Source of the DNA: an uncultured Coriobacteriia bacterium
GTDB lineage: Bacteria; Actinomycetota; Coriobacteriia; Anaerosomatales; PHET01
DNA length: 64,000 nt
Assembly: GCA_942493275.1 (NCBI GenBank)
Contig: OW818687.1
Span: 1,857,918-1,921,917 of the forward strand
Direction of reading: 5' to 3'
Positions 9,481-49,501 of the stretch are shown one piece after another. How positions within the stretch are numbered: position 1 is the stretch's first letter; every line of letters starts with the position of its first letter. Under the pieces are notes generated by a model. The model searched no databases. It was not told where the DNA came from and saw only the letters and a program-made list of their open reading frames with translations. Position numbers and translations under genes: made by a program.

Positions 9481-10776
9481 ATGGGACTCGAAGAGCGTTT
9501 GCGCGACGGTAGTGCGGTGTTCGGCGTTGTCGGACTCGGCTACGTCGGACTGCCCCTGGCCGTCGAGATGGCCAAGGAGGGCAACCGGGTCATCGGCCTG
9601 GAGGTCTCGCAGGGCAAGACCGACGAAGTCAATGCGGGTCGGAGCTACATCCCCGACGTGCCCACCGAGGAACTCGCCCCACTCGTGGAGCAGGGTCTGA
9701 TCAGCGCGACCACGGACTTTTCGCGTGTCGCCGAGTGTGATGCGGTCGCGATCTGCGTCCCCACGCCGCTCAACAAGATGAAGGAGCCGGACGTCTCCTA
9801 CATGGTCTCGGCGACCGAGGCGCTCACGCCGTACCTGCGTCCCGAGATGCTCATCACCATGGAATCGACCACGTATCCCGGCACCACGGACGAGATCGTG
9901 CGCCCCATCCTGGAGGCCGGCGGCCTGAAGGTGGGCACCGATATCTACCTCGCCTTCTCCCCCGAGCGCGTTGATCCGGGAAACCCCGTGTACCAGACCA
10001 AGAACACGCCCAAGGTCGTCGGCGGTCAGACCCCGCGATGCACCGAGATGGCGGTCGCGTTCTACGAGAGCTTCCTCGACACCGTGGTCCCGGTCTCCTC
10101 GACCCGCGCGGCCGAGATGACCAAGCTCCTCGAAAACATCTTCCGCTGCGTCAACATCGCGCTCGTCAACGAGCTGCTGATGCTGTGCGAGCGCATGGAC
10201 ATCAACATCTGGGAGGTCGTGGACGCGGCCAAGACCAAGCCGTTCGGCTTCATGCCGTTCTACCCGGGCCCCGGTCTGGGCGGTCACTGCATTCCGATCG
10301 ACCCGTTCTACCTGTCGTGGAAGGCTCGTGAGTTCGACTTCCACACCGAGTTCATCGAGCTGTCCGGCAAGGTGAACGAGAACATGCCGTACTACGTGGT
10401 CACGCGCTTGATGTCGGCGCTCAACACGCGTCGCAAGGCGCTCGCGGGCAGCCGGGTACTGGTGCTCGGAGTCGCCTACAAGAACGACATCGACGACATG
10501 CGCGAGAGCCCGGCGATCAAGATCATCGACCTGCTCCTCGACAACGATGCCGAGGTCGTCTACCACGACCCCTACGTGCCTGAGTATCACGAGGACGGTC
10601 GCACGGTCCCGTACGTGGACCTGACCGAGCGAGAGCTCGCCGATGCCGATGCCGTGCTCATCGTCGCGGCACACCGCAACCTCGACTACGACCTCGTGGT
10701 GCGCTCGGCAGATCTGATCCTCGATACGCGTAACGCCCTCAAGGACTTCGCGAGCGATAAGGTGGTTCGCCTGTGA
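9481..10776 (+). CDS. UDP-N-acetyl-D-glucosamine (or -mannosamine) 6-dehydrogenase, WbpA/WecC-type nucleotide-sugar dehydrogenase
   Basis: N-terminal Rossmann motif VVGLGYVGLPLA and catalytic Cys block GLGGHCIPIDP. First gene of a WbpA-B-D-E-I-like string. Confidence 0.9.
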   Translation: MGLEERLRDGSAVFGVVGLGYVGLPLAVEMAKEGNRVIGLEVSQGKTDEVNAGRSYIPDVPTEELAPLVEQGLISATTDFSRVAECDAVAICVPTPLNKMKEPDVSYMVSATEALTPYLRPEMLITMESTTYPGTTDEIVRPILEAGGLKVGTDIYLAFSPERVDPGNPVYQTKNTPKVVGGQTPRCTEMAVAFYESFLDTVVPVSSTRAAEMTKLLENIFRCVNIALVNELLMLCERMDINIWEVVDAAKTKPFGFMPFYPGPGLGGHCIPIDPFYLSWKAREFDFHTEFIELSGKVNENMPYYVVTRLMSALNTRRKALAGSRVLVLGVAYKNDIDDMRESPAIKIIDLLLDNDAEVVYHDPYVPEYHEDGRTVPYVDLTERELADADAVLIVAAHRNLDYDLVVRSADLILDTRNALKDFASDKVVRL

Positions 10777-11798
10777 GCGCTCCCATCGGAGTTGGTGTCG
10801 TCGGGTTCGGTTACTGGGGCCCAAACCTCGTCCGCAACGTGGATAGACTCGGGGACGCGCGCCTGCTGGCGTGCTGTGATCTGTCCGAGGACAACCTCAA
10901 GCGCTTCTCGGCGGCGTATCCGGAGGTCGACGTCACGAGCGACCTCGGTGCGATGCTCGCCCGGGAGGACATCGGAGCGGTTGTCGTCGCGACGTCGGCA
11001 CCGAGCCATCACGCCATCGCCAAGCAGGTCATCGAGGCCGGCAAGCACTGCTTCGTCGAGAAGCCGCTGACCCTGACCTCAGCGCATGCCGAGGAGCTCG
11101 TGCGCCTCGCCGACGCCAAGGGCGTCACGCTGATGACCGGGCACCTCATGGTCTACCACACCGCCATCAACTGGATTCGCGACTACATCGCCTCAGGCGA
11201 GCTCGGCGACGTGCTCTACGTCTACCTGCAGCGTCTGAACCTGGGCAAGGTTCGCACCGAGGAGAACGCTTTCTGGTCGCTGGCTCCTCACGACGTCTCG
11301 ATCGCGCTCTATCTGCTCGGCGAGACGCCCGACCGCGTCTCGGCCAACGGCGCCGACTACGTGACGCCGGGTGTACACGACACCGTCTTTGCGAACTTGC
11401 ACTTCCCGAGCGGTCGCATGGCCAACATCCACGTGAGCTGGCTCGACCCCCACAAGGTCCGCAAGCTCACCGTCGTCGGCACCAAGAAGATGCTCGTGTT
11501 CGACGACATGGAGGCCACCGAGAAGATATGGATCTACGACAAGGGTCTCGGTGCTCCCGAGGACGCGATGTCGTGGAACCAGGACCTCACACTGCGCTTC
11601 GGCGACATCACCGTGCCGTTCGTGCAGATGAAGGAGCCTCTCTCCATCGAGGTCCAGCACTTCCTCGACTGCTGTAACAACGGCGAGAAGCCGCGCAGCG
11701 ACGGCCGTGACGGTCTTGCGGTCGTTCGCGTGCTGGAGGCCGTCGATGAGTCGATGGCCGGCGGCGGCGCCCCGATCGACATCGCGCTGGAGGTCTGA
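10773..11798 (+). CDS. Gfo/Idh/MocA oxidoreductase, WbpB-like (UDP-GlcNAcA 3-dehydrogenase type)
   Basis: Contains GVVGFGYWGPNLVRN and the EKP motif (CFVEKPL). GTGA overlap with the upstream gene. Confidence 0.8.
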   Translation: MSAPIGVGVVGFGYWGPNLVRNVDRLGDARLLACCDLSEDNLKRFSAAYPEVDVTSDLGAMLAREDIGAVVVATSAPSHHAIAKQVIEAGKHCFVEKPLTLTSAHAEELVRLADAKGVTLMTGHLMVYHTAINWIRDYIASGELGDVLYVYLQRLNLGKVRTEENAFWSLAPHDVSIALYLLGETPDRVSANGADYVTPGVHDTVFANLHFPSGRMANIHVSWLDPHKVRKLTVVGTKKMLVFDDMEATEKIWIYDKGLGAPEDAMSWNQDLTLRFGDITVPFVQMKEPLSIEVQHFLDCCNNGEKPRSDGRDGLAVVRVLEAVDESMAGGGAPIDIALEV

Positions 11799-11800
11799 AC

Positions 11801-12553
11801 ATGAACGACTTGGTCACCATCGACGCCGGCGCTCGCATCGAGCCCGGCGTCTCGCTTGGTAGCTTCGTGGTGGTCGAGGCGGGTGCGGTGATCGGATCCG
11901 ATTGCGTCATCGGAAACCACGTCACCATCTGCGAGGGCGCCGAGATCGGAGCCGGGACGGTCATCTCGGACTTCGCGATCGTGGGTAAGCGTCCCAAGCT
12001 GTCGCCGCGCTCGACCGCCAAGGGCGGCCCCCTTCCGGGAGTCGTGGTGGGCGAGGGGTGCGCGATCGGGTCGCACACGGTCGTCATGGCCGGGACCACG
12101 CTGGGCAACGGCGTTATCGTCGGCGACAACGCCGGCATCCGCGAGCGCTGCTCGGTGGGCGATTCGGCGGTCGTGGGCCGCAGCGTGACGGTGGAGAACG
12201 ACACCTCGATCGGCGCTCGGACCAAGATTCAGAGCGGCGCCTACATCACCGCCTACGTGACGCTCGAGGACGACGTCTTCATCGCGCCGATGGTCGTCAC
12301 CACCAACGACAACTACATGGGCCGTACCGAGAAGCGCTTCGCCGAGCTCAAGGGCTGCACCGTGCGGCGCGGCGCGCGTGTCGGCGGCGGGTGCCACATC
12401 CTCCCCGGCATTGAGATCGGCGAGGAGGCGTTTGTCGCCACCGGTTCGGTGGTCACCCGCGACGTGCCCGCAGGCAAGCTCGTGATGGGCGTGCCCGCGA
12501 AGGTCATCAAAGACGTGCCCGCCGACGAGCTGCTCGAGAATCAGGCCCGGTAA
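11801..12553 (+). CDS. Left-handed beta-helix (hexapeptide-repeat) N-acetyltransferase, WbpD-like
   Basis: Successive [LIV]-G-x-x-x-x hexapeptide turns throughout, and it lies between the oxidoreductase and the aminotransferase. Confidence 0.8.
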   Translation: MNDLVTIDAGARIEPGVSLGSFVVVEAGAVIGSDCVIGNHVTICEGAEIGAGTVISDFAIVGKRPKLSPRSTAKGGPLPGVVVGEGCAIGSHTVVMAGTTLGNGVIVGDNAGIRERCSVGDSAVVGRSVTVENDTSIGARTKIQSGAYITAYVTLEDDVFIAPMVVTTNDNYMGRTEKRFAELKGCTVRRGARVGGGCHILPGIEIGEEAFVATGSVVTRDVPAGKLVMGVPAKVIKDVPADELLENQAR

Positions 12554-12638: not shown

Positions 12639-13745
12639 ATGGGTATCCCGCTGCTGGACCTGAAAGCGCAGTATCGCGACCTCAAGGACGAGCTCGACGC
12701 CGTGTGGTTCGACGTCATGAGCAACGCCTCGTTCATCGGCGGACCGCGCGTGAAGGCGCTCGAGGAGCAGGTTGCCGAGTACGTGGGCACCGAGCACTGC
12801 ATCGCCTGCGGTAACGGCACCGACGCGCTCTTCCTGATCATGGCCGCGCTCGGCATCGGTAAGGGCGACGAGGTCATCACGACCCCGTTCACGTTCTTCG
12901 CCACCGTCGAGTGCATCGCTCACGTCGGTGCGACCCCGGTCTTTGTCGACATCGAGCCCGGCACCTACAACATGGACATCTCGAAGGTCGAGGCCGCGAT
13001 CACCCCGCGCACCAAGGCCATCGTCCCTGTCCACATCTTCGGTCAGTGCGTGGACATGGACCCGCTCATCGAACTCGCCGCCGAGCACAACCTCGAGATC
13101 GTCGAAGATGCCTGCCAGGCGATCGGCGCCACCTACAAGGGCAAGCGCGCCGGCTCTCTGGCCCGCGCGGCCGCCTTCTCGTTCTTCCCGAGCAAGAACC
13201 TCGGCTGCGCCGGCGACGGCGGTTGCGTGACCACCGACGACGCGGTTCTCGCTGCGCGCATGCGCAAGCTCGCGGCGCACGGCACCACCAAGAAGTACTT
13301 CCACGACACCTTCGGCGTGAACTCGCGCCTCGACTCGCTGCAGGCCGGGATCCTCTCGGTGAAGCTGCCGCACCTCGACCGATGGAACGCCGAGCGCCGC
13401 GCCGCGGCCTCCGTCTACGACGAGCTGCTCGCCGGCACCCCGGATCTCGAGCTGCCGGTCGTGCGCGACTACGGCGAGGCGGTCTACCACCTCTACATCG
13501 TCAAGTCGGACCGTGCGGGCGACGTGATGGCCGCACTCGGCGATGCCGGCATCGGCACCGCGCTCTACTACCCGATGTCCCTGCACGAGCAGGAGGTCTT
13601 CGACAAGCGCGAGGGATGGGTTCGCCCGTCCCTGCCTGTCACCGAGTCCTGTGACGGTTCGACGTTCGCGCTGCCGGCCTTCCCCGGCATCACGCGCGAG
13701 CAGATCGAAGAGGTCGTCTCGGTTGTGAAGGGTGTGCTGAGCTGA
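12639..13745 (+). CDS. DegT/DnrJ/EryC1 PLP-dependent sugar aminotransferase, WbpE-like
   Basis: Contains GTEHCIACGNGTDAL and the PLP-lysine block FSFFPSKNLG. Confidence 0.9.
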   Translation: MGIPLLDLKAQYRDLKDELDAVWFDVMSNASFIGGPRVKALEEQVAEYVGTEHCIACGNGTDALFLIMAALGIGKGDEVITTPFTFFATVECIAHVGATPVFVDIEPGTYNMDISKVEAAITPRTKAIVPVHIFGQCVDMDPLIELAAEHNLEIVEDACQAIGATYKGKRAGSLARAAAFSFFPSKNLGCAGDGGCVTTDDAVLAARMRKLAAHGTTKKYFHDTFGVNSRLDSLQAGILSVKLPHLDRWNAERRAAASVYDELLAGTPDLELPVVRDYGEAVYHLYIVKSDRAGDVMAALGDAGIGTALYYPMSLHEQEVFDKREGWVRPSLPVTESCDGSTFALPAFPGITREQIEEVVSVVKGVLS

Positions 13746-13746: not shown

Positions 13747-14835
13747 ATGAAGGTCATCTCGGTCGTCGGGGCCAGGCCCCAGTTCGTCAAAGCGGCACCG
13801 GTCTGCCGGGCTCTCCGCGCGCGTCACGAGGAGATCCTCGTGCACTCGGGTCAGCACTACGACTACGAGATGTCCGACGTCTTCTTCGAGCAGCTCGGCA
13901 TCCCGAAGCCGGACTTCAACCTCGCTGTCGGCAGTGGTTCGCACGCCAAGCAGACCGGCGAGATGATGGGACTGCTCGAGGAGCTGTTCATCGAGCAGAA
14001 GCCCGACGTCGTGCTCGTCTACGGCGACACCAACACCACGCTGGCCGCGGGACTCGCGGCAGCCAAGGCGCACATCCCGGTCGCGCACATCGAGGCGGGT
14101 CTGCGCTCGTTCAACCGCTCGATGCCCGAGGAGACCAACCGCGTCCTGGTCGATCACCTGAGCGAGCTGCTCCTGTGCCCGACACGGGCGGCGGTCGCCA
14201 ACCTGGGTGCCGAGGGCATCGTCCACGGCGTCCACCTCGTGGGCGACGTCATGCTCGACACCGCGCGCTTCTTCGCCGATCAGGTCGACGCGTCCGATGC
14301 GCTCGAGCGCTTCGAGGTCGAGCGGGGAGAGTACTTCCTCGCCACGGTCCACCGCGCGGGCACCTCGGACTCACGGGCCAGGCTCGAGTCGGTCATCCGC
14401 GCGTTTGGCCAGCTCGACAAGACCGTCATCTGGGCGATTCATCCGCGTACGCGCAAGAACATCGAGTCGTTCGGCCTCGACGCCCTGCTCTCGACCGCCC
14501 GCAACGTCGTGGCGGTGCCGCCGATCAACTACATCGACACCGTCTCGCTCCTCCGGTGCGCGAAAGGCCTGCTCACCGACTCGGGCGGCATGCAGAAGGA
14601 GGCCTACTTCTTCGGCGTCCCCTGCGTCACACTGCGTGACGAGACCGAGTGGGTCGAGACCGTGGAGCTCGGCTGGAACCGCCTCGTGGGCACCGACGAG
14701 TCCGCGATAATCGCTGCGGCGGGCAGTTTGGCAACTCCTTCGCTCCATCCTGATGTCTACGGGGACGGTCGAGCGGCCGAAGCCATCGTCGTCGCGCTCG
14801 AGCAAAGGTTCGACTCGAATCGCGTCGGCGAGTAG
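13747..14835 (+). CDS. UDP-N-acetylglucosamine 2-epimerase family (WbpI/WecB-type, non-hydrolysing)
   Basis: Contains RPQFVK, HSGQHYD, YGDTNTTLA and HIEAGLRSF. Confidence 0.9.
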   Translation: MKVISVVGARPQFVKAAPVCRALRARHEEILVHSGQHYDYEMSDVFFEQLGIPKPDFNLAVGSGSHAKQTGEMMGLLEELFIEQKPDVVLVYGDTNTTLAAGLAAAKAHIPVAHIEAGLRSFNRSMPEETNRVLVDHLSELLLCPTRAAVANLGAEGIVHGVHLVGDVMLDTARFFADQVDASDALERFEVERGEYFLATVHRAGTSDSRARLESVIRAFGQLDKTVIWAIHPRTRKNIESFGLDALLSTARNVVAVPPINYIDTVSLLRCAKGLLTDSGGMQKEAYFFGVPCVTLRDETEWVETVELGWNRLVGTDESAIIAAAGSLATPSLHPDVYGDGRAAEAIVVALEQRFDSNRVGE

Positions 14836-14859: not shown

Positions 14860-16407
14860 ATGGGTAAGCATTCTTCAAGTAATGGGTCGGGTCCGTTCAA
14901 GCGTGGCGGGTCTGACCGCCAGGGTTCCGGACTTCCGCGCCCGGCGAAGCGCTCCTCCGCAGGGGCTCGTCGCGGCACGCCCATCCCCAAGAACACCAAG
15001 CCCCGTGTTCCCGATGAGACGTACTCCCTGTCGGATGCATCGTCGCGCCGCAAAGGCCCGCTGGAGAGCGCTCCGGCCCGCCTTCGCGTCGAGCGCGAGC
15101 GTCGTCGTTCCCGCACCAAGCGCTACGCGGCCATCGGAGCCGTTGCTCTCGGCGTGCTGATCGTGACCGCCGGAATCGGTGTGTTCGCGTACGCCAAGCA
15201 CATCGAGAAGACGATGCAAAAGACGATCTACAAGCAGGAGAAGGTCATCGCTCAGCTCGATAAGGCAAAGCCGATGGAGCCGTACAACATGCTCCTCGTC
15301 GGCTTCGACCGCCGACCGGGCGAGACCGTGTATCGCACTGACTCCATGCTGCTCGCACGAGTCGATCCCAAGACCAAAGAGGTCTGGCTTCTGTCGATCC
15401 CTCGCGACACCAAGGTCACGGTGCCGGGTCACGGGACCCAGAAGATCAACAACGCCTACGCGCTCGGCGGGCCTGAGCTGACCATCGAGACGGTGGAGAA
15501 GTTCACGGACGTGTCGATCAACCATTACATGGCCATCAACTTCGAGGGCTTCGAAAAGGCCGTCGACGCGATGGGCGGCGTGTGGGTCGACGTCCCGCAG
15601 GAGATCAACGACATCAAGGCCGACCGCAGTCCCGGACACCGGGCCGCACACGTCGATGCCGGCTACCAGCTTCTGGACGGCGAGCACGCACTCACCTTTG
15701 TCCGCAGCCGAGACTATCCGGACGCCGACATCACCCGCATGAAGAATCAGCAGTCGTTCTTCATGGCGATCGCCGATCAGGTCGCCGAGCGCACCAGCAT
15801 GGCCAGGATCCCCGGCATCGTTTCGGGCGTCGCACCCTACATCTCGACCGACATGTCGCTGATGGAGATGCTCCGCACCGCCCAGGCGCTTCGCGGGGCC
15901 GGCAGCAAGCGGGTCTACACCTCGACCATCGGTGGTGACTGGGTCTCGCCCTACATCGTCACCGACGAGGAGGCCAAGGCAACGCTTCTCGCCAAGTTCA
16001 ATGCCGGCGAGCCCTTTGTGAAGCCCAAGGCATCCGAGGGGGACAGCTCGACTCCCGACGCAGAGGAGACCGAGGCGGAGTCCACGGTCGACCCGGCCAA
16101 GGTGACGGTCACCGTGCGCAATGGTGCCGGCATCGCGGGATGCGCGAAGCAGGCGTCATCGATCCTCAAGGCGCAGGCATTCCAGGTGCTCGACGTGGGC
16201 AACGCCAACCAGTTCGTCTACCCGGAGACGCTCGTGGTCTTCAAGGGCGACAGGAGCGCGGCCGAGCTGGTCGCCAAGGCGCTGCCGCCGGGAACCAAGC
16301 TCGTTGAGAGCCGCGGGATGTATGCCTACTCCACGGAGGTACTCGTTGTCGTCGGGCGGAACTGGGACGTGAGCAAGGTCCCGGTCGCGCCGATCAGGAC
16401 GAACTAG
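14860..16407 (+). CDS. LytR-CpsA-Psr (LCP) family glycopolymer-to-peptidoglycan ligase with a C-terminal LytR_C domain
   Basis: Basic cytoplasmic tail, one TM helix (AIGAVALGVLIVTAGIGVFAY), and an LCP core (LLVGFDRR...RTDSMLLARVDP...SIPRDT). The C-terminal part VTVTVRNGAGIAGCA...VVF is typical of LytR_C. Confidence 0.9.
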   Translation: MGKHSSSNGSGPFKRGGSDRQGSGLPRPAKRSSAGARRGTPIPKNTKPRVPDETYSLSDASSRRKGPLESAPARLRVERERRRSRTKRYAAIGAVALGVLIVTAGIGVFAYAKHIEKTMQKTIYKQEKVIAQLDKAKPMEPYNMLLVGFDRRPGETVYRTDSMLLARVDPKTKEVWLLSIPRDTKVTVPGHGTQKINNAYALGGPELTIETVEKFTDVSINHYMAINFEGFEKAVDAMGGVWVDVPQEINDIKADRSPGHRAAHVDAGYQLLDGEHALTFVRSRDYPDADITRMKNQQSFFMAIADQVAERTSMARIPGIVSGVAPYISTDMSLMEMLRTAQALRGAGSKRVYTSTIGGDWVSPYIVTDEEAKATLLAKFNAGEPFVKPKASEGDSSTPDAEETEAESTVDPAKVTVTVRNGAGIAGCAKQASSILKAQAFQVLDVGNANQFVYPETLVVFKGDRSAAELVAKALPPGTKLVESRGMYAYSTEVLVVVGRNWDVSKVPVAPIRTN

Positions 16408-19170: not shown

Positions 19171-19845
19171 ATGGCACAAGACACGGACACCTCGGCACGC
19201 AACACGCTCATCGCCGCTATCGCGGTCTCAGTGCTGCTGGTCGCGTCGATCGCCGTTGCAGCGGTTCGCGGCCCGGCTGATGAGCCCGTGGGGCAGGCCA
19301 CTGGCGAGTCCACGATGACGGGCGAGCAGTCCGGCGCAACGGGCACGCCCGATAACGGCACGCCCGGCGAGCCCGGGGACACGTCGGGAGGCGGTCAGAC
19401 CGCGCCCGGGACCACCCAGGATCCGACGGACGACGAGGGCAAGAACCTGCCCTCAGGCAATCGCGCCGGCGCCCCGACCGCACCCGCACCGGAGGGAAGC
19501 AGGCTCACGACGCTTCCTGCGCCGCCGCTTAAGACGATCGGGCTCATCAAACTGCCGGACAACTTCAAGGGCGCCACGTACGCGATCACATTCGAGCCCT
19601 ACGGCTGGGGGCCTTCGGGAGTCCAGGGCGGACGGCTGGTTGCCCGCATCAAGACGTCGAAGGCCGCCGATGACGGAGCCAAGGCGCTGAACCGCGACTT
19701 CACGGATCGAAACGCGACACTGTGGTGCACGCCGGAAGTGGCGCGCATCGTCAAGATCGGCGGCGAGTACCAGGCCAAGCTCGTGGTCAGGCCCCAAGGT
19801 GACGCCGGGGTGCTCTACATCGAGAACGTGAAGGCGGTCGAGTAG
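19171..19845 (+). CDS. Membrane-anchored hypothetical protein (N-terminal TM, Pro/Gly/Thr-rich linker, ~110-aa C-terminal domain of unknown function)
   Basis: Start at MAQDTDTS..., then the TM helix LIAAIAVSVLLVASIAVAAV. No recognisable family motif. Confidence 0.55.
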   Translation: MAQDTDTSARNTLIAAIAVSVLLVASIAVAAVRGPADEPVGQATGESTMTGEQSGATGTPDNGTPGEPGDTSGGGQTAPGTTQDPTDDEGKNLPSGNRAGAPTAPAPEGSRLTTLPAPPLKTIGLIKLPDNFKGATYAITFEPYGWGPSGVQGGRLVARIKTSKAADDGAKALNRDFTDRNATLWCTPEVARIVKIGGEYQAKLVVRPQGDAGVLYIENVKAVE

Positions 19846-31916: not shown

Positions 31917-31950
31917 ACCGGCCCGGGAGGCGATTGCCTCCCGGGCCGGT
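31917..31950. terminator. Bidirectional stem-loop between convergent genes
   Basis: Perfect 15-bp stem ACCGGCCCGGGAGGC / GCCTCCCGGGCCGGT with loop GATT, followed by GTTGCTTGTT on the + strand. It sits between the stops at 31901 (+) and 31984 (-). Confidence 0.7.
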
Positions 31951-40699: not shown

Positions 40700-40818
40700 G
40701 AAGACCTCCGAGGTTTCATTCGGGTGGGTGGAGACGCGCGATGTCGTTCCCCCCAAGCACGCCGGATTCTACCACTCAAGGGAGATTACCGGCCGCTCGA
40801 GCGACGTGCGTCGAAGGG

Positions 40819-42414: not shown

Positions 42415-43573
42415 ACACGCCGAGAAGCGCGGGTGCGTCCGCTTCGAGGTTCCAGCGGTCGAGAACCGCCTTGCGACCTGCGGCTGCGGCGGTGCGGGCG
42501 ACCTCGGGGTCACTCAGCTCGAGTGCCTCGCGCGCGAAGTCAGCCGCGTCGCCGGTGCGAAACACGCCGCCCGCCTGCGCCTCGCGCACGATGCGTGCGA
42601 GCGGCAGGCAGTCGCTGACGAGGACCGGCCGCTCGAGCGCCATGTACTGGAACAGCTTGTGCGGCACGGTGGCATCGGTGTGTGGCGAGCGGTGGTGCGG
42701 CACCAGCGCGAGCGTTGCGGTGCGGATGTACTCCATTGCCGCGTCCTTCGACAGCCAGCCGGTGAACTCGACCGCGTCGCTGAGGTTCAGCGCGGCGGCC
42801 TGTGCCTTGAGCTCGGTGAGGGTGTCACCGTCGCCGACGATCGTGAGGCGTGCGTCGGGACGCTTCGCGAGGATGGCCGGCATTGCCGCGACGGCGGTGT
42901 CGAGACCGCGATGCGCGGCCACGCCGCCCACGTACACGAGGCGCGGGCCCGCCGAGAAATCGAGTGCGGGGGGCTCGGGAAGCGCGAGCGCGAGGGGCTC
43001 GGTGTTGCCGAAGACCGCGATCTTGGCGGGGTCGGCTCCGAGACCGGCGAGTCGCTCGCGTGCCTCGTCGACGACTACGATCACGCGGTCGGCGTTCTCG
43101 ACCGACCAGCGCTCGAGCTTCTCGGCGCGCTCGGGGGAGAACAGGATGCGGTCCGCGCGACGGCGACGCCACAAGCGAAGGGCGGCGGGGTAGTTCTCGT
43201 GGAAGTCGAGCACGACCGGCACGCCGGTCTCGCGCCCGGCGAGAATCGCCGACTTCGCGTACGGCAGGTCGTGCACGTGGAGCGCCTCGGCGCCGTGCAC
43301 GCGCACGAGGTCGACCATGCCCTGGCGCCACGAAGGCGAGTCGAGCGTGGTGAGGAAGCGCCACGAGTCGAATTTGCGCGCGAGCGTGTTGCCCGGGTGG
43401 ACGCGATGGCGGACGGCGGTGACGGAGCCGACGGTCTCGACCTCGGCCTGCCCCGGCTCGCGGCGACACAGCACCAGGATCTCGTGGCCGGCTGCGGCGA
43501 GCGCGTCGGCCTCCTTCTCGATGCGGATGTCGGGTGGGAACTTGTGGTTGGCGTGCACCATGCCAATGCGCAT
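42383..43573 (-). CDS. Glycosyltransferase family 4
   Basis: Start at MRIGMVHANHKFPPDIRIEKEA.AL..AGHEI. GT-B C-terminal block F.GW........Y......L.P......D...P.KLFQYMA..RPV. Confidence 0.85.
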   Translation of the reverse strand: MRIGMVHANHKFPPDIRIEKEADALAAAGHEILVLCRREPGQAEVETVGSVTAVRHRVHPGNTLARKFDSWRFLTTLDSPSWRQGMVDLVRVHGAEALHVHDLPYAKSAILAGRETGVPVVLDFHENYPAALRLWRRRRADRILFSPERAEKLERWSVENADRVIVVVDEARERLAGLGADPAKIAVFGNTEPLALALPEPPALDFSAGPRLVYVGGVAAHRGLDTAVAAMPAILAKRPDARLTIVGDGDTLTELKAQAAALNLSDAVEFTGWLSKDAAMEYIRTATLALVPHHRSPHTDATVPHKLFQYMALERPVLVSDCLPLARIVREAQAGGVFRTGDAADFAREALELSDPEVARTAAAAGRKAVLDRWNLEADAPALLGVYDALATEKRS

Positions 43574-43641
43574 GGGGGTCCTTTCGGGAGGTGGCGGTTC
43601 GACAACGGACGGGGCTGTTATGGCTCCTCGGCGCGCTGCCC

Positions 43642-43657: not shown

Positions 43658-44998
43658 GTGGAAGAGAACCAGCGGCGAAACGTGCTCATTGTAGCCTACG
43701 AGTTCCCTCCCTCGGCGGGCGGGGGCGTGCAGCGCCTCGCCAAAATGGTGCGCTACCTGCCCGATTCGGGGTGGACACCGCACGTGCTCGCGGCCACGCC
43801 CGTGTGGGGTAGGCCCCAGGACGAGAGCCTGGTCGAGCAGGTCGCCTTTGCCGAGGTCACGCGTCTGCCCAACAGGAGCATCGGCGCGTCGGTTGCGCGC
43901 GCCCTGGCACCGGTGAAGGCGCTTCGCCGCCGAGGTGGCGGCAGCTCGGCAGGTGCAGGCGTCCCCGCAAAGCCCGCGGCCGCGGCAGGTGCTACCGGGA
44001 TCCCGGCCAGCACCCGGATCGTGCGCAGGCTCGGCATCGACACCGCCGAGCTGTGGGCGCGCAAAGTTCCCGCCGAGGCGCTTCGGCTCCATCGCAAGAT
44101 CGGCTTCGACGCCGTCATCGCTTCCGGACCTCCGCACTCAGCGCTGGTCGCCGGTGCGCGCGCCGCCCGCGAGATGGGCGTGCCGTTCATCGCCGACTTC
44201 CGCGACGCCTGGCGCGAGAATCCCGACTTCCGCCGTCCCGAGTCGCCGGATCAAGACGCTCGCTCGCTCGCGCTCGAGCGTGAGGTTCTCTCGGTGGCAG
44301 ACGCCGTGGTCGCGGTGAGCCAGCCGATAGCGGATGAGACGCTTGAGGAGGGCGCCACCACGGCGATCGTTGTCCCCAACGGCTTCGACCCCTCCGATCT
44401 GCCGCGCCATCGCGTGCAGCGCGGGCCGCTCACCATCGCGTTCATGGGCCGCTTCTACGGCAGCACCGACCCCACGCCGTTCTTCGACGGCGCGGCTGAG
44501 GCGGTTCGCCGAGGAGGCCCCGCGGCTGACCTGCACATCGAGGTCCTCGGCCAGATGTCCGATTTCGTGCGCGACGCCATCGAATCACGAGGGCTTGACG
44601 GCCACGTCACCTATCACGGGTACCTGCCGCACGCCCAGGCTCTCGAGATCGTGTCGCGCTCCGACGCGGGGCTCGTGGCACTGCGCGATCATGCGGGCGG
44701 CGAGGCCAACTACACCGGAAAGATATTCGAGTACCTCGGGGTCGGCCTGCCGATCCTGCTCGTGGGACCGGAGATGGGCGTCGCAGCACAGCTTGTCCGA
44801 GAAGCCCGGGCCGGCATCGCGGTGCCGTACTCGCGCCCCGACCGAGTCGCCGACGCACTTGAAGAGCTCGCGCGCCGCAAGGTGGACGGGTTCTCGGTCG
44901 TGGACCCGGTCGCCGAAGTCGTCGCACGTTTCGACCGCCGTACGCAGGCTGCGCGCATCGCCGCGCTGCTCGACGAGGTGGTGAGCGCCCGTGCGTGA
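43658..44998 (+). CDS. Glycosyltransferase family 4
   Basis: Contains VEENQRRNVLIVAYEFPPSAGGGVQR and a GT-B C-terminal half. The upstream 465 codons of the ORF-track entry are antisense to two real genes and are rejected. Confidence 0.8.
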   Translation: MEENQRRNVLIVAYEFPPSAGGGVQRLAKMVRYLPDSGWTPHVLAATPVWGRPQDESLVEQVAFAEVTRLPNRSIGASVARALAPVKALRRRGGGSSAGAGVPAKPAAAAGATGIPASTRIVRRLGIDTAELWARKVPAEALRLHRKIGFDAVIASGPPHSALVAGARAAREMGVPFIADFRDAWRENPDFRRPESPDQDARSLALEREVLSVADAVVAVSQPIADETLEEGATTAIVVPNGFDPSDLPRHRVQRGPLTIAFMGRFYGSTDPTPFFDGAAEAVRRGGPAADLHIEVLGQMSDFVRDAIESRGLDGHVTYHGYLPHAQALEIVSRSDAGLVALRDHAGGEANYTGKIFEYLGVGLPILLVGPEMGVAAQLVREARAGIAVPYSRPDRVADALEELARRKVDGFSVVDPVAEVVARFDRRTQAARIAALLDEVVSARA

Positions 44999-46379
44999 GG
45001 CGATCGCTCGCATTCCTGACTCGCGGGCGACGTGGGTCATCCTCGCGGGCGCCGCAGGCCTCGTGGTCGCGGCCGGAGCCTCGCAGCTGGGGCTTGCGGG
45101 CGCGATCGCCGCGCTCGTCGTACTCGGCGGTCTGGTCGCGGCAGCGAAAGGGGTGCTCGACGTCCGTTTCGCGCTCTCGCTCTCGCTCGTCGCGCTGCCG
45201 CTCGATGTCTACGGGCGCCTGATCGAGCGCCCGATCGCGCTCACGGCGTATCAGGGGACCCTGTTCATCGCTCTGGCTGCGTGGGCGCTCGCCATCGCGC
45301 GCGGCAAGCAGCGGCTGCCTCGTCCCAGCGCGGTCGACGCCGCCATGGCGCTCTTCGTGATCGCCGGACTCTGGTCGCTGCCGCACTCGCTTGCTCCGAG
45401 TGCCACTGCGCTCTCAATCGCGCGTCTCGTCTTCATATGGGCCTTCGTCGCTCTCATCTCCCATAACCTGCGTTCGGAGGTCGACCTCAGGACCTTCGTG
45501 AACGTGCTCATCGCCACGGGTGTCGCCGGCGGCCTGCTCGCGTTGGCGCAGTACATGGGATACGACGTCGGCAACATCCACGTGCAGGGCCCGGATGACT
45601 TCCGGGCGCTCTCGCGCGTCTCGGGATTCTTTGATGACCCGAACTACTTCGCAGGCTTCCTGACCGCATGCGCCGTTGCGGCCGCCGGGCTCTTGGCGCA
45701 CTCGAAGCGGTGGATCGACGTGCTCGTCTACGCGGCCGGCGTGGGCATCTGCTCCCTGGGCGTCGTGCTCACGTTTTCGCGCACCGCGTGGCTCGGTCTG
45801 GCGTTGGGCTTCGTGTTGGTGGCGTTCACAGCTCCCAGGCGTGTCCGGTTCGTCCTCGTCTCGGCAGGCGTCGCAGGGGTGCTGCTGTTGGTGGCGCTCC
45901 AGCCGGCCACCGTCATCGACCGGGTCGCATCGTCGTTTGACTTCCAGGGTGACGAGTCGATCTCGACGCGCATCTACATGGCTGGTTCGATGCTCGACAT
46001 GATCGAGGACAATCCGGTGTGGGGGACGGGGCTTGCGGCGTTCGACCGCGAGTATCCGTATTATCGCAACGCGTATGCGAGCAGAACCATCCTCCGGCCG
46101 CACCAGATCCCGCTCGGCCTGTGGTCCGAGGCGGGTATCGCGGGCCTGATCGCCCAACTCGGAATGCTCATCGCGGTGGGCTTCACGCTCTTTGCCGACC
46201 GCCGCAAGCGTCCGTTCTCCGCCTACGAGTCGGTCGCGTTGGCCGGCATCGTGTGCATGTCGGTCCAGTCCCTGTTCCAGTACTATCTCTATTTCGAGTA
46301 CCTGTGGCTGTTTGTGGCGCTCGCCGTGGCCGCTTCGCGGGTCGCTCGACGTGATGAGGAGGCTTCACAGCATGTCTGA
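44991..46379 (+). CDS. O-antigen ligase / Wzy-type polymerase family membrane protein
   Basis: About 10-12 TM helices. Wzy_C-like block LTFSRTAWLGLALGF, and a large loop with W.GTGLAAF. Confidence 0.8.
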   Translation: MREAIARIPDSRATWVILAGAAGLVVAAGASQLGLAGAIAALVVLGGLVAAAKGVLDVRFALSLSLVALPLDVYGRLIERPIALTAYQGTLFIALAAWALAIARGKQRLPRPSAVDAAMALFVIAGLWSLPHSLAPSATALSIARLVFIWAFVALISHNLRSEVDLRTFVNVLIATGVAGGLLALAQYMGYDVGNIHVQGPDDFRALSRVSGFFDDPNYFAGFLTACAVAAAGLLAHSKRWIDVLVYAAGVGICSLGVVLTFSRTAWLGLALGFVLVAFTAPRRVRFVLVSAGVAGVLLLVALQPATVIDRVASSFDFQGDESISTRIYMAGSMLDMIEDNPVWGTGLAAFDREYPYYRNAYASRTILRPHQIPLGLWSEAGIAGLIAQLGMLIAVGFTLFADRRKRPFSAYESVALAGIVCMSVQSLFQYYLYFEYLWLFVALAVAASRVARRDEEASQHV

Positions 46380-47133
46380 CGAGTCCCGGTTCGACCTGGC
46401 AGGCGCCGTTCGCCGCGAGTGGTGGCTCGTGCTGCTTGTCGTTGCGGTCGCCATGATCGGCACCATTCTCGCCACCTCGGGAGGCGTGGCGTCATACACG
46501 GGCAGTGCGACCGTCTACATCGACTACCCCGCGGTCAACAGGTTCCCGCCGTTGTTCTACGGCGACCGCATGCTCGAGCTCATCCAGTCCCCCGCGTTCT
46601 TCAATGCCTTGTCCGAGAAGACCGGCATTCCGGTCGAGGACATCAGAGCGAACATGCGCACCTCGGCGCAGGGCAAGTTCCTCGACAAGCTCGCGATCCG
46701 GTACACCGCTGATACTGAGGCGGAGGCCGAGGAGGCCGCCGACAAGCTCGCCGCCGCCGTCATCGAATATGCGGGTGAAGTGGGCGCAGTCGAGACGGAT
46801 CGTCAGGCCGCCGTCATCGCGGTGAATGAGGATGCGGTCGCGAAGATAGAGGTGCTTCTCGAGACCGTGCGCGCGCAGGGCGAGCCGTACCAGGAGGCTG
46901 ATCTCGTCAGCAAACTCGCGATGCACGAGGCCGAGATCATCAATACGGCCACCGCGCTCAGAGCAATCGAAGACGCCTACACGTACGACGGGGTCGTCAA
47001 GGTCGATGGCGGTACGGCATCCACTCTGCGTATCGACGCTCTTGCCGGAGCGCTGCTGGCGGGACTCGTCGCAGGTATCGGCATCGCTGCGCTGCGTGAG
47101 TGGTGGCTGCTTCGCCGCGCCAAGACGGTCTGA
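46372..47133 (+). CDS. Wzz-like polysaccharide co-polymerase (chain-length determinant); short form without a kinase domain
   Basis: The ATG at 46372 overlaps the previous gene by 8 nt. N-terminal TM (WWLVLLVVAVAMIGTILA), an Ala/Glu-rich helical middle, and a C-terminal TM (LLAGLVAGIGIAAL). Confidence 0.65.
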   Translation: MSDESRFDLAGAVRREWWLVLLVVAVAMIGTILATSGGVASYTGSATVYIDYPAVNRFPPLFYGDRMLELIQSPAFFNALSEKTGIPVEDIRANMRTSAQGKFLDKLAIRYTADTEAEAEEAADKLAAAVIEYAGEVGAVETDRQAAVIAVNEDAVAKIEVLLETVRAQGEPYQEADLVSKLAMHEAEIINTATALRAIEDAYTYDGVVKVDGGTASTLRIDALAGALLAGLVAGIGIAALREWWLLRRAKTV

Positions 47134-47141
47134 CGAGAGAG

Positions 47142-48353
47142 ATGTCTCCCAAGCTCAACGGAATCACCTTCGCGAAGCAGTTCCCCAACCCGGCGGAGCC
47201 GCTGAGAGGCCTGTTCGTGGCCGAGCAGGTCGCCGCGACGTCGTCTGAGGTCGACTGGAGTGTCATCTCGGCGGTTCCGTGGATACCCAAGGTGCTGGCC
47301 GGTCCTCTCGGTAGGCCATTCATCAAGGGCTCCGAGCGGCGCGATGGCGTCGAGGTCGCGCACCCTCGCTACCCGGTGCTGCCCAAGAGGATGCTTTACA
47401 CGACCGTCGCGCCCGCCGTCGCGACCGCGGCCCGCGCCGACTTCGAGCGGTTCGCTCGCGGCGCCGACTTCGTGCACGCGCACGCTCTGTATCCGAGTGC
47501 GGCTGCGGCTCGGAGACTCGCGGGTCCTGCTGGGCTGCCGCTCATCGTGAGTATCCACGGCTCCGACCTCTACACCAACGCCGCCAGGCCCGCGTGGAAG
47601 CGTGAGCTCGAAGAGGTGGCTCGTGACGCCGCGGCGATCGTGTGTGTGAGTGCATCGCTCGCCCGCGACGCCGTACGACTTATCGGCGCGTCTCCCGAGA
47701 AGGTCTGTGTCATCCCCGATACCTACGACGAGGCTCGGTTCAGTCTCGTCGAGCGTGATGCTCCCGACGGTCGTTCGCTACGCCTGGTGACTGTGGGCCG
47801 CCTGGTGCCGGTCAAGGGCTTCGACGTGCTCCTCTCGGCGCTTGCGACCGCAGTTGAGAGCGGCCTGGACGCGGAGCTCGCCATCGTCGGCCAGGGTCCG
47901 GAGCGCTCGCGACTGCAGGAGCGCTCAGTGGCGCTGGGGATCGCTGGGCGCGTGCGATTCACCGGTGCGCTGGCGCCGGAGGATCTCGCCTCCGAGCTCG
48001 CGCGGGCGGATCTGTACCTTCAGCCTTCGCGTGCGGAGGGGTTCGGTGTCGCGCTTGTCGAGGCGATGGCGACCGGATTGCCCGCGATCGCGACCGACGT
48101 CGGCGGGCCGGCCGACATCGTGGAGCCGAGCCTCGGCGAGCTCGTGGCCGGCGACGACGCGGCCGCACTCGCGGGAGCGCTGGCGCGCGGTCGCGATCTG
48201 GTGGCCGCCGCGGACTCGCGCGCGATCGCCGCGAGCATCGCCCGGCGGTTCGGCCGCGCGGGTGTGGCTTCTCGGCTGGTGGGACTGTACCGGGCCGTGG
48301 TGGCCGGCGCCGCCGTGCCGGACTCGCTCGCGATCAACAGGAGCGGCGCATGA
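47142..48353 (+). CDS. Glycosyltransferase family 4
   Basis: Contains HAHALYPS..AA, VGRLVPVKG and PSRAEGFGVALVEAMATGLPAIATDVGG. Confidence 0.88.
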   Translation: MSPKLNGITFAKQFPNPAEPLRGLFVAEQVAATSSEVDWSVISAVPWIPKVLAGPLGRPFIKGSERRDGVEVAHPRYPVLPKRMLYTTVAPAVATAARADFERFARGADFVHAHALYPSAAAARRLAGPAGLPLIVSIHGSDLYTNAARPAWKRELEEVARDAAAIVCVSASLARDAVRLIGASPEKVCVIPDTYDEARFSLVERDAPDGRSLRLVTVGRLVPVKGFDVLLSALATAVESGLDAELAIVGQGPERSRLQERSVALGIAGRVRFTGALAPEDLASELARADLYLQPSRAEGFGVALVEAMATGLPAIATDVGGPADIVEPSLGELVAGDDAAALAGALARGRDLVAAADSRAIAASIARRFGRAGVASRLVGLYRAVVAGAAVPDSLAINRSGA

Positions 48354-49501
48354 GCCGTCACGTGGTGATGTTGCTGTCCAACGACGCGGTCTCGGACCCT
48401 CGCGTGGAGAAGGAGGCCCAGGCGCTGGCCCAAGACGACTGGCGCGTGACCGTTCTCGCATGGGATCGCTCAGGTCAGGCCCCTGCCCGAGAAGATCGCT
48501 CGGGCTACACCATCGAACGGCATGGTCCGCCATCCATGCATGGCGGTGGCGTGAGAAACATCCCGGCTTACCGCAGGTTCTGGGCCGCCGTCGCTGCGCG
48601 CGCCGTCGAGCTCAAGCCCGACGTCATCCACTGCCACGACCTCGATACGGCTCCGGCGGGGCAGAGTGCGCACCGCAGCTGCCGCAAGGCGGGCCTCTCC
48701 ACAAAGCTGGTGCTGGACTTTCACGAGTTGTACCGCGAGAGCAAGATGGTGCCGCAGAAGGGGGCCGTTGGCATCGCCGCCCGCGCGGCGGTTCGCGTTG
48801 TCGAGAAGCGCGCGATCCCGGCCGCGGACGTGATCCTGGTGGCTAATCCCGGCACGCTTGGCTACTACGACCGTTTCCGACCGCGCAGGGTGGTCACCAT
48901 CGAGAACGCTCCCGACCTCGAGCGGTTCTCCCCGTCGGCTCCCCGCGAAGCGGGCACGCCCCTCAAGGCATGTTTCATCGGACAGAAGCGCTATACGCAG
49001 GGCCTCTACACGCTCATGGAGGCAGTGCAGCGTCACGATGACATCACCGCGCTGCTTGCGGGCGGGGGAGTGGCCGAAGCCGAGATCGCCGAGGCGGCGA
49101 AGCGCTACGAACGCGTCGAGACCATGGGCCGCATCGCTTATGCCGACATCCCGGCGCTCTACAGGGACTGCGACGTGGTGTACGCGGTCTACGACCAGGG
49201 ACTCGGAAACGTGCAGACGCTCTTCCCGGTAAAGGCGATGGAGGGGATGGCGTGCGCGGTCCCGGTCATCGTCAGCACCGGGACGTGGATCGCCGAGTAC
49301 GTCGAGGCGCACGGACTGGGCTTCGCGGTGGACGCGGGTGACGTCGACTCGGTCGAGGCCGCACTCGTGGCACTCCGAGACAACCCGGCGCTCGCCGCCG
49401 AGATGGGGCAGCGCGGCAGGGCGATCATCGAATCGGAGCTCAACTGGCAGGCGGTGGCCGAGCGGCTCCGCGCGACCTATCGGGAGCTTGCCAGCGCCTA
49501 G
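48350..49501 (+). CDS. Glycosyltransferase family 4
   Basis: ATGA overlap with the upstream gene. N-terminal VVMLLSNDAVSDPRVEKEAQALA and a GT-B C-terminal block. Confidence 0.82.
   Translation: MSRHVVMLLSNDAVSDPRVEKEAQALAQDDWRVTVLAWDRSGQAPAREDRSGYTIERHGPPSMHGGGVRNIPAYRRFWAAVAARAVELKPDVIHCHDLDTAPAGQSAHRSCRKAGLSTKLVLDFHELYRESKMVPQKGAVGIAARAAVRVVEKRAIPAADVILVANPGTLGYYDRFRPRRVVTIENAPDLERFSPSAPREAGTPLKACFIGQKRYTQGLYTLMEAVQRHDDITALLAGGGVAEAEIAEAAKRYERVETMGRIAYADIPALYRDCDVVYAVYDQGLGNVQTLFPVKAMEGMACAVPVIVSTGTWIAEYVEAHGLGFAVDAGDVDSVEAALVALRDNPALAAEMGQRGRAIIESELNWQAVAERLRATYRELASA

Follow-up and report, generated by a model that had tools for sequence, protein, structure and literature searches.

An LCP ligase, wall-polymer genes and seven CWB2 triplet proteins in a cell-envelope island of a Coriobacteriia actinobacterium

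We analysed a stretch of 64,000 nucleotides, here called the window, from an uncultured Coriobacteriia bacterium of the Anaerosomatales (assembly GCA_942493275.1, contig OW818687.1, positions 1,857,918 to 1,921,917). It contains a cell-envelope block of about 40 kb (9481-49501), bounded by fabZ (8991-9419) and a PNP_UDP_1 gene (49534-50376). An original prediction, made from the letters alone, had divided this block into three gene sets, and Pfam matches confirmed all of them: nucleotide-sugar genes together with a glycopolymer ligase of the LCP family (9481-18938), seven secreted proteins with triplets of the CWB2 wall-binding module (20009-36031), which we refer to as cargo 1 to cargo 7, and a Wzx/Wzy-type polysaccharide assembly locus (36068-49501). 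The matches also bore out that the LCP ligase and the assembly set flank the cargo genes. We take the block to be this actinobacterium's principal island of cell-envelope genes, which lies at a fixed chromosomal site.

The GC content across the window is high (0.61-0.70), and for this reason six-frame lists of open reading frames were crowded with shadow frames. Genes were picked by third-position GC and then scanned with Pfam. Strands are given below as + or -, and loci of related genomes are referred to by handles such as L001.

CWB2 triplets and the proteins that carry them

The CW_binding_2 model (PF04122) matched seven proteins encoded at 20009-36031, in three stretches each and with scores of 107-153 bits (cut-off 24.9). 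With domain E-values of 1e-31 to 1e-45, chance is not an issue for these calls. A hidden Markov model built from the units found 21 of them, three per protein, and none in the other annotated proteins of the window. The units are 29-39 % identical to one another, with position-specific similarity in cargo proteins 1-3, and all seven proteins begin with what was judged by eye to be a signal-peptide-like N-terminus. The motif that had been proposed for the start of the units, R[LI][AS]G.[ND]R[YF].TA, did not stand in its strict form, which at most 6 of the 21 units can contain, as counted with a somewhat looser pattern. A looser consensus does hold and is visible in the unit alignment, together with an F-[AP]-D-A-L segment. 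A Pro-Ile-Leu-Leu-type motif (scored as P-[ILVM]-[ILVM]-[LVTPF]) is kept in 17 of the 21 units; Willing et al. reported the Pro-Ile-Leu-Leu motif to be essential to CWB2 anchoring (PMC4973711).

An AlphaFold2 model of the amidase-CWB2 protein (cargo 4), computed from a 16-sequence alignment, had a pLDDT of 89.9. The best Foldseek matches of this model were Cwp6, Cwp8 and the SLPH part of SlpA (5j72, 5j6q, 9f8e_B, 7acy_B), with a target TM score of 0.69 and a root-mean-square deviation of 3.2 Å for 7acy_B. The cargo 4 sequence itself matched Cwp6 (5j72) at an E-value of 6e-49. The 21 scoring units, the match to Cwp6 and the modelled fold, computed for one of the seven proteins, agree with the earlier assignment of the repeats, and membership in the CWB2 triplet family is well supported.

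The cargo consists mostly of wall-remodelling proteins, namely an amidase, an L,D-transpeptidase and a SpoIID protein. Cargo 1 (20009..23080, +) combines a signal peptide and about six CarboxypepD_reg-like beta-sandwich domains (CarboxypepD_reg, 98 bits) with the CWB2 triplet (CW_binding_2, 134.6 bits). The protein is rich in Thr, Ser and Pro and extremely acidic, with a net charge of -107 outside the CWB2 region, a Lys plus Arg content of 2.3 % and a Trp plus Tyr content of 10 %. If the window encodes an abundant wall protein with a structural or S-layer-like role, this is the best candidate. We rejected cargo 1 as a homolog of SlpA, because the SlpA model matched the CWB2 part only, with 44 bits against a cut-off of 650. 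Cargo 2 (23203..24924, +) has a signal peptide, the triplet and, according to Pfam, a YkuD L,D-transpeptidase domain; orthologs are present in L001, L081, L084, L085, L089 and L090. In cargo 3 (24931..27069, -) a signal peptide and a GSDH-type beta-propeller (130 bits) are joined to the triplet (CW_binding_2, 124 bits). Cargo 4 (27199..28875, +) carries, by Pfam, a signal peptide, an Amidase_3 domain (MurNAc-L-Ala amidase) and the triplet.

Cargo 5 (28947..31199, +) has a signal peptide, a SpoIID domain identified by Pfam and the CWB2 triplet. The ortholog in L088 (11555-14044, from the HGW-Actinobacteria-7 metagenome-assembled genome) is 829 residues long and has no CWB2 units, and its N-terminal 400 residues alone align. 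The wall-anchoring module has apparently been swapped there, in a genome whose island is without glycosyltransferase, Ugd and Wzx genes. In the window, murA (7688-8971) and the SpoIID gene (28947-31199) share a neighbourhood; in L088, the minimal relative, they lie about 3.5 kb apart. In Bacillus subtilis murAA and spoIID are neighbours as well. Possibly the SpoIID gene was at this site first and the island formed around it.

Cargo 6 (31984..33717, -) consists of a signal peptide, a region of about 240 residues that is perhaps Ig/PKD-like (the PKD hint has an E-value of 0.65) and the triplet (CW_binding_2, 152.5 bits). It is missing from L090. Between cargo 5 and cargo 6 lies a gene for a small secreted protein of 136 residues (31491..31901, +), with a signal-peptide-like N-terminus and no Pfam match, which is likewise absent from L090. 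A scan with a terminator consensus identified a GC-rich terminator-like hairpin with a 15 bp stem between the convergent genes at 31917..31950. Upstream of the cargo genes, 19171..19845 (+) encodes a membrane-anchored protein with no Pfam match, composed of one transmembrane helix, a Pro/Gly/Thr-rich linker and a C-terminal domain, and rich in Thr, Ser and Pro. L081 and L084 have homologs at the corresponding place, and L090 has an unannotated gene of 220 codons there. An Rfam scan of the block revealed no riboswitch, and riboswitch control of the cargo genes was rejected. The seventh cargo protein is described below, together with the polymer genes.

Genes for a predicted acidic wall polymer

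Five enzyme classes of the Wbp/Wlb type (6-dehydrogenase, 3-dehydrogenase, aminotransferase, N-acetyltransferase and 2-epimerase) are encoded contiguously at 9481-14835, all on the + strand. The NDP-sugar 6-dehydrogenase (9481..10776) has three UDPG_MGDP_dh domains and is of the WbpA/WecC/Cap5O type, for which the predicted substrate is a UDP-N-acetylhexosamine. Its top PDB matches were Cap5O (6e-71) and UDP-ManNAcA dehydrogenase, and it is nearer to these than to any named WbpA model. The next gene (10773..11798) encodes, by Pfam, a Gfo/Idh/MocA oxidoreductase, a candidate sugar 3-dehydrogenase with a WbpB-like role. The nearest model was the archaeal UDP-GlcNAc 3-dehydrogenase NF040723, with a sub-cut-off score of 152 bits; the top PDB matches were generic, and WbpB/WlbA was not among the matches listed. 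A hexapeptide-repeat N-acetyltransferase (11801..12553; Hexapep) resembles WbpD, WlbB and QdtC, with PDB matches to QdtC (2e-24) and WlbB (3mqg, 8e-22). It is followed by a pyridoxal-phosphate aminotransferase (12639..13745; DegT_DnrJ_EryC1, 395 bits) that is predicted to act on a 3-keto sugar in the manner of WbpE. Among PDB entries, glutamine--scyllo-inositol transaminase (7b0d, 1.4e-100) came first, WbpE second (about 1e-91), and QdtB also matched (3e-90). The last of the five is a non-hydrolysing UDP-HexNAc 2-epimerase of the WecB/WbpI family (13747..14835; Epimerase_2, 344 bits), which cleared TIGR00236 (wecB) with 311.7 bits against a cut-off of 210. Apart from this wecB model and generic domain or subfamily models, NCBIfam equivalog naming stayed below cut-off for nearly all enzymes.

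The five genes are followed by the gene for the membrane-anchored LCP glycopolymer-peptidoglycan ligase (14860..16407, +), which matched LytR_cpsA_psr with 150 bits (cut-off 24.6) as well as LytR_C and has a visible N-terminal transmembrane segment. More than 120 orthologs at 49 % identity or higher were found in metagenome-assembled genomes of Coriobacteriia/Actinomycetota. The first set ends with two genes on the opposite strand. A glycosyltransferase with the Pfam domains of family GT4 (GT4_a; 16404..17624, -) is 66-77 % identical in L001, L081, L084 and L087 and belongs to the conserved core. The second gene encodes a TuaD-like UDP-glucose 6-dehydrogenase, Ugd (17637..18938, -; TIGR03026, 417 bits), which scored 474 bits with the TuaD model NF047673, under its cut-off of 700. 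Its ATG start at 18938 is preceded by GGAGG.

Judged by these families, the enzyme classes would fit a route to 2,3-diacetamido-2,3-dideoxy-hexuronic acid plus UDP-GlcA. The matches to WbpE and WlbB speak for this assignment. An alternative product split would be UDP-ManNAcA and UDP-GlcNAc3NAc. Because two 6-dehydrogenases are present, an acidic uronic-acid polymer is predicted whichever product set is made.

The third gene set comprises two divergent groups. On the - strand are a cytoplasmic (alpha/alpha)6-barrel carbohydrate-active protein (36068..37261; GH88 at E 2e-4, below cut-off), the glycosyltransferase GT4_b (37258..38514), a 749-residue fusion of a Zn-type alcohol dehydrogenase (ADH_zinc_N) with a GFO_IDH_MocA domain (38507..40756), a Wzx-type flippase whose start codon is uncertain (40819..42357; Polysacc_synt_3, 68 bits, and Polysacc_synt) and GT4_c (42383..43576). 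The + strand encodes GT4_d (43745..44998, start codon approximate), a membrane protein with a Wzy_C domain (44991..46379; 84 bits) that may be a polymerase or of the ligase/O-oligosaccharyltransferase type, a Wzz-like candidate chain-length regulator (46351..47133), GT4_e (47142..48353) and GT4_f (48350..49501), the last island gene before PNP_UDP_1. The alcohol dehydrogenase fusion and the glycosyltransferases were assigned by Pfam. Orthologs of Wzx are 46-54 % identical in L001, L081 and L084, those of GT4_c 61-64 % in L001 and L085, and that of the Wzy_C protein 43 % in L085. The set had been described as a Wzx/Wzy/Wzz locus with five GT4 genes. Wzx, Wzy_C and the five GT4 genes stand, and Wzz is unconfirmed, its match to PF02706 (E 0.013, 16.3 bits) lying under the cut-off of 25.5. 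By eye, the candidate has two transmembrane helices around a helical domain; its gene directly follows that of the Wzy_C protein, and in L085 an unannotated gene of 249 codons lies after Wzy.

The (alpha/alpha)6 protein belongs to a large family whose members often match GH88 or the C-terminal model of glucuronyl C5-epimerase (C5-epim_C). A homolog search, an AlphaFold2 model (pLDDT 94.8) and Foldseek returned only generic (alpha/alpha)6 matches, to AGE epimerases, GH76, GH88/GH105 and a polysaccharide lyase, and indicated no specific activity. This protein and the alcohol dehydrogenase fusion occur together in the window and in L090, and both possibly modify uronic acids.

The genes for cargo 7 and then cargo 6 lie downstream of the Wzx, alcohol dehydrogenase fusion, GT4_b and (alpha/alpha)6 genes and share their strand; the gaps measure 36 and 73 bp. 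The terminator consensus scan identified no terminator-like site on the - strand between 31984 and 43576, before the strong hairpin at 31917-31950. These short gaps and the lack of an intervening terminator-like site are consistent with co-transcription, and judging by the gene layout the Wzx operon appears to extend into cargo genes 7 and 6.

An enzyme that might initiate the polymer is encoded outside the block, about 9 kb upstream. The C-terminal end of a WecA/TagO-type GlcNAc-1-P transferase (3..329, +) matched TIGR02380 (ECA_wecA) at E 2e-10 over profile positions 244-329. Its gene precedes the atp operon, and its family makes it the candidate for the initiating step.

Cargo 7 (33791..36031, -) connects the cargo with the predicted sugar chemistry. 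It has a signal peptide, a PL25-like seven-bladed propeller (BNR_4, 90.6 bits) and the CWB2 triplet, and its residues 32-318 are homologous to the PL25 ulvan lyase PLSV_3936 (PDB 5uam; E 5e-33). The catalytic residues of PLSV_3936 are His123, Tyr188 and Arg204, and Tyr246 binds the substrate (PMC13193363). They align with His98, Tyr148, Arg164 and Tyr198 of cargo 7, respectively. The protein is conserved in L001, L081, L085 and L090; among the orthologs, which range down to 32 % identity, L001, L081 and L085 retain the catalytic three, and L001 and L085 also Tyr198. Unlike the PL25 ulvan lyases, cargo 7 is fused to a CWB2 wall anchor and does not conserve the Zn ligands. In the alignment, read by hand, the PL25 Zn site is lost (His208 is deleted, and His264, Cys266 and His278 are replaced), and the ulvan-binding residues Asn122 and Lys125 are changed to Met and Ala.

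PL25 enzymes catalyse beta-elimination next to uronic acids, and a PL25-type homolog with the catalytic His, Tyr and Arg among the cargo fits a uronic-acid polymer. AlgL, PslG and PelA act on polymers of their own loci. The host resembles Gram-positive anaerobes and has no ulvan context, so the likely substrate of cargo 7 is the cell's own polymer. By homology, the protein is plausibly a putative uronate beta-eliminase that trims the cell's own uronic-acid wall polymer. Such a wall-tethered PL25-like protein suggests an enzyme of secondary-wall-polymer turnover, of which few examples are known. In agreement with the original prediction, three features (the two 6-dehydrogenases, the 3-amino-sugar enzymes and the PL25-like lyase) favour a polymer of uronic acids over one like PSII of Clostridioides difficile.

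The island in related genomes

The interleaving of polymer and cargo genes was found again in five relatives, listed here with their identities: L090 (62 %), L001 (56 %), L084 (56 %), L081 (53 %) and L085 (47 %). This neighbourhood comparison answers positively, within one clade, the question of linkage of the gene sets in related genomes. L090, the closest relative (62 % being the identity of its amidase), has a nearly identical gene order and is without cargo 6 and the reading frame at 31491-31901 only. L001 has, in this order, wbpA/B/D/E, LCP, GT4 and Ugd genes, four CWB2 genes and a GT4-Wzx-GT4-GT4 group. L081, L084 and L085 have other cargo sets, which include S8 peptidase-CWB2 proteins, and the island of L085 terminates at PNP/AdoHcyase exactly like that of the window. 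The LCP and amidase-CWB2 orthologs gave an identical longest-contig value for seven contigs (31-164 kb), two of which are L001 and L090.

At least two polysaccharide-type genes within 10 kb were present at 4 of 10 CWB2 loci, as compared to none of 76 Amidase_3 loci without CWB2. The control loci came from a contig search with amidase-domain patterns, which returned mostly unrelated Amidase_3 loci and a single close relative, L001.

A comparison anchored on the LCP gene revealed a constant frame, in which atp, murA, fabZ, dehydrogenase and LCP genes stand on one side and PNP, AdoHcyase and MtnA genes on the other. In the window, the left flank of the block accordingly consists of the WecA-like fragment, the atp operon, murA (7688-8971) and fabZ, and the right flank of PNP_UDP_1, AdoHcyase, MtnA, a transporter, a ComFC-like protein and ABC transporter genes. 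Throughout, the dehydrogenase and LCP genes are the invariant pair. Orthologs of the 6-dehydrogenase lie immediately 5' of the LCP gene in L087, L088 and L089 as well (72-82 % identity), and GT4_a and Ugd accompany the pair in many relatives. The interval between LCP and PNP is variable, with one to more than 20 genes in the relatives and about 33 kb in the window. In L088 it holds a single SpoIID gene without CWB2, and in L087 it begins with GT4, Ugd and Wzx genes and continues onward from there. The number of CWB2 genes at the island, the window included, is 0, 2, 3, 4, 5, 6 or 7.

The island site behaves as an insertion hot spot. In L084, a Vsr/NgoMIV/Dcm restriction-modification system is inserted within the island (4747-6968). 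In L089, an rve transposase gene (18430-19047) lies about 2.5 kb past the PNP end of the island and is followed by a Bac_transf and GT4 locus. A tRNA-flanked mobile island was considered and rejected, because the window is without tRNA genes and the flanks do not exceed the block (0.64-0.70) in GC content.

In L001, the wbpA/B/D/E genes are 68-80 % identical to those of the window, and the 2-epimerase gene is missing between aminotransferase and LCP (3666-3902). Its absence hints that the product in L001 has the gluco and not the manno configuration, or that the epimerase gene is located elsewhere. In L082, L083 and L086, from more distant metagenome-assembled genomes of Coriobacteriia, the amidase-CWB2 gene lies in a conserved neighbourhood of housekeeping genes with guaB-guaA, ychF and groES/EL-tsaBDE, and L082 and L083 have a second CWB2 protein gene beside groEL.

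Proposed anchoring of the cargo and its alternatives

Our best reading, which we hold with somewhat more confidence than doubt, is an arrangement of polymer, ligase and cargo that functions in the manner of C. difficile. Cytoplasmic enzymes of the first set would produce a UDP-HexNAc-uronic acid or a UDP-2,3-diacetamido-2,3-dideoxy-hexuronic acid, together with UDP-GlcA. From their families, the six GT4 enzymes would be expected to assemble a repeat unit on undecaprenyl phosphate, primed by the WecA-like enzyme; Wzx would flip the unit, the Wzy_C protein would polymerise it, and the Wzz-like protein may set the chain length. In keeping with the established role of LCP proteins, the LCP enzyme would then transfer the polymer to peptidoglycan. 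The seven Sec-exported cargo proteins would finally be held on this polymer non-covalently through their CWB2 triplets, as Cwp proteins are on PSII. A more specific version of this arrangement is put forward tentatively, as possible rather than probable: the triplets recognise a Wzx/Wzy-made, LCP-attached teichuronic-type polymer of (di)acetamido-hexuronic acid and GlcA, and the lyase is tethered in order to trim the same anchor. If true, CWB2 would gain its first known ligand outside Bacillota and its first of non-PSII, non-phosphodiester chemistry, and the island states in the relatives would amount to a natural experiment on the co-evolution of CWB2 specificity with polymer chemistry.

Several observations weigh against the proposed arrangement. 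That these CWB2 triplets bind the polymer of this locus is an inference for which gene context is the sole link. The four CWB2 loci with polysaccharide-type genes and the five syntenic relatives belong to one lineage, the pattern therefore being due in part to common descent, and much of this one-clade synteny may be inherited gene order, not independent association. In L082, L083 and L086 (37-43 % identity), the amidase-CWB2 gene is flanked by guaB and ychF, away from any polymer locus of this kind. In L089, the LCP-PNP interval has a YkuD-CWB2 and a SpoIID-CWB2 gene and no GT4, Ugd or Wzx genes. Genes wbpB/D/E lie between the dehydrogenase and LCP genes solely in the window and L001 (wbpI in the window only); since CWB2 cargo persists without diacetamido-sugar genes at the site, a diacetamido sugar cannot be named as the ligand. 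By their profile scores, most enzymes fall short of the NCBIfam equivalog cut-offs. Pfam identified no initiating phosphoglycosyl transferase (PF00953, PF02397) within 9481-49501. Finally, the isoelectric points of the CWB2 triplets range from 4.5 to 10.3, with three of the seven triplets acidic (4.5-5.0), so the triplets are not uniformly basic and do not evidently complement an anionic polymer by charge in any simple way. We discarded charge complementarity as a test of an anionic ligand, as the mixed charge of the triplets neither supports nor refutes one. The notion of a complete, self-contained system goes further than these comparisons support: the initiating transferase is encoded outside the block, and the interval between LCP and PNP expands and contracts, the block being a variable island rather than a cohesive module.

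The variability of the island would suit a different explanation, which we find distinctly less likely but of some weight, namely co-location without a ligand-receptor tie. The block would then be an old envelope neighbourhood and insertion hot spot beside murA, its Wzx/Wzy set would make a capsule or exopolysaccharide, and the CWB2 proteins would bind the product of the conserved dehydrogenase-LCP core alone or a polymer encoded elsewhere. The widely varying content of the island (L088, L089, the insertion in L084 and the transposase in L089) agrees with this, as do the unlinked CWB2 proteins of L082, L083 and L086 and the presence of the alcohol dehydrogenase fusion, the (alpha/alpha)6 protein and wbpB/D/E/I in some relatives only. 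However, orthologs of Wzx, Wzy, GT4_c and GT4_d stand beside the cargo in L001, L084 and L085, and their retention at 39-64 % identity does not match the turnover that a hypervariable locus for a capsule should show. The apparent co-transcription of cargo 6 and 7 with the Wzx operon also argues against mere co-location, as do the LCP ligase and the wall-anchored PL25-like lyase embedded in the block and the precedent of C. difficile, in which such adjacency can be functional.

It is unlikely that the Wzy_C protein is an O-oligosaccharyltransferase (WsaB/PglL-like) and that the third set glycosylates surface proteins in the manner of S-layer glycans. The Wzy_C family (PF04932) does span polymerases, ligases and O-oligosaccharyltransferases; there are weak NCBIfam matches, far below cut-off, to 'putative O-glycosylation ligase' and RfaL and, for the flippase, to 'O-glycosylation flippase' (36 bits); and cargo 1 and the 19171-19845 protein are rich in Thr, Ser and Pro. 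On the other hand, Wzx, Wzy_C and a Wzz-like protein with two transmembrane segments form a classical polymerisation set, most S-layer glycan loci described so far rely on ABC transporters, and the LCP gene and the lyase suit a peptidoglycan-linked polymer. Least probable of all, in our estimate, is binding of the triplets to peptidoglycan itself, which would make the polysaccharide genes irrelevant to anchoring. Peptidoglycan is indeed the substrate of most cargo enzymes, namely of the amidase, the L,D-transpeptidase and SpoIID, but the sole CWB2 case that has been tested binds PSII and not peptidoglycan (PMC4973711), and a review gives wall polysaccharides as the CWB2 target (PMC5817068).

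The preferred polymer-ligase-cargo arrangement has its closest counterpart in C. difficile. There, the AP locus, proposed for PSII synthesis, lies directly downstream of the slpA/cwp cluster and contains glycosyltransferase, MviN flippase and LCP genes with interspersed cwp genes, including one for a CWB2 amidase; PSII is linked to the wall by LCP proteins and serves as the ligand of the CWB2 triplets (PMC4973711, PMC5065235, PMC10100865). The block shares with it CWB2 triplet proteins, among them an Amidase_3 protein (Cwp6 in C. difficile), beside or within a glycopolymer locus with LCP, glycosyltransferase and flippase genes, as well as the predicted triplet fold (Cwp6, Cwp8, SLPH) and the Pro-Ile-Leu-Leu-type motif. 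The differences are considerable. The host is a member of the Actinomycetota/Coriobacteriia and not of the Bacillota, and the polymer predicted here is a Wzx/Wzy-assembled uronic-acid polymer, in contrast to the phosphodiester-linked hexasaccharide of PSII. The catalytic domain of the amidase is N-terminal, the reverse of the domain order in Cwp6. A PL25-like lyase among the cargo and the behaviour as a variable island also set the block apart. Pfam and NCBIfam revealed no genes for SecA2, Cwp84, a SlpA-type protein, manC, pgm2, uppS2 or glycerophosphotransferases in the window, all of which C. difficile has. Moreover, earlier work had recorded CWB2 in Actinobacteria, for the most part in Micrococcales (PMC5817068). 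The locus is thus less novel than first implied, since the C. difficile layout (PMC4973711, PMC5065235) is a precedent for a CWB2 system of this kind and CWB2 was noted in Actinobacteria before; what remains new are the phylum and the predicted sugar chemistry. A literature search found no paper on a CWB2 system in Coriobacteriia.

Other systems resemble parts of the block. LytC (CwlB) of Bacillus subtilis is also an Amidase_3 protein with three CWB2 modules (PMC5817068). The window further shares with B. subtilis a TuaD-like Ugd (474 bits) and weak similarities to TuaB, TuaC and TuaH; all tua matches lie under the equivalog cut-offs, and the cargo here numbers seven proteins. To our knowledge, lytC and tua of B. 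subtilis do not form one interleaved cluster. In Geobacillus stearothermophilus, a non-pyruvylated wall polymer with 2,3-diacetamido-2,3-dideoxy-mannuronic acid anchors SbsC/SgsE non-covalently (PMC4232325). The Wbp-like genes of the window predict the same sugar class, the composition of the polymer here being a prediction, whereas the binding module in G. stearothermophilus is a conserved N-terminal non-SLH region and not CWB2. The five contiguous enzyme classes also recall the Wbp (Wlb) pathway to UDP-ManNAc3NAcA of Pseudomonas aeruginosa and Bordetella and its archaeal counterpart, with the difference that the product enters lipopolysaccharide in P. aeruginosa and Bordetella and would enter a Gram-positive wall polymer here. 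The SLH systems with pyruvylated secondary cell wall polymers (CsaB) of Bacillus anthracis and Paenibacillus alvei likewise combine a triple module and a peptidoglycan-linked polymer with diverse cargo enzymes (PMC6081394, PMC4973711). The block is similar to them in having a triple wall-binding module, a predicted peptidoglycan-linked polymer and many cargo enzymes, but the module is of another fold family and the window has no SLH or CsaB gene.

CWB2 anchoring has been resolved experimentally in C. difficile alone and for one ligand, PSII. A second system, from another phylum and with a different, predictable polymer, would show what CWB2 triplets recognise, and also if the layout of polymer locus, LCP gene and cargo predicts wall ligands from genomes generally. 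Members of the OPB41/Anaerosomatales lineage occur widely in anoxic and subsurface habitats, and their envelope chemistry is absent from the published descriptions that we found. AtpD of the window clusters at 90 % or more with a protein of a Coriobacteriia metagenome-assembled genome, and Coriobacteriia and Actinomycetota are also the source of the homologs of the amidase-CWB2 and LCP proteins. Isolates of OPB41/Anaerosomatales, which the window resembles in GC content, have a GC content of 66.6-67.7 %, genomes of 1.8-2.1 Mb and a Gram-positive wall, and an S-layer is not mentioned in their description (PMC9686372).

Elsewhere in the window, a raiA RNA (RF03072) was identified at 54667-54907 (+) with 155.6 bits against a gathering threshold of 101.3, just after the gene for the ComFC-like phosphoribosyltransferase (53955-54626). 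A reading frame at 54840-55787 overlaps this RNA and may have been called too long. An hpf/raiA-type gene lies at 58697-59257, separated from the raiA RNA by an amino-acid ABC transporter. Two adjacent HD_5 (HD-GYP-like) proteins, followed by a DUF5317 membrane protein, are encoded at 60276-62794 (+) and are unrelated to the envelope block.

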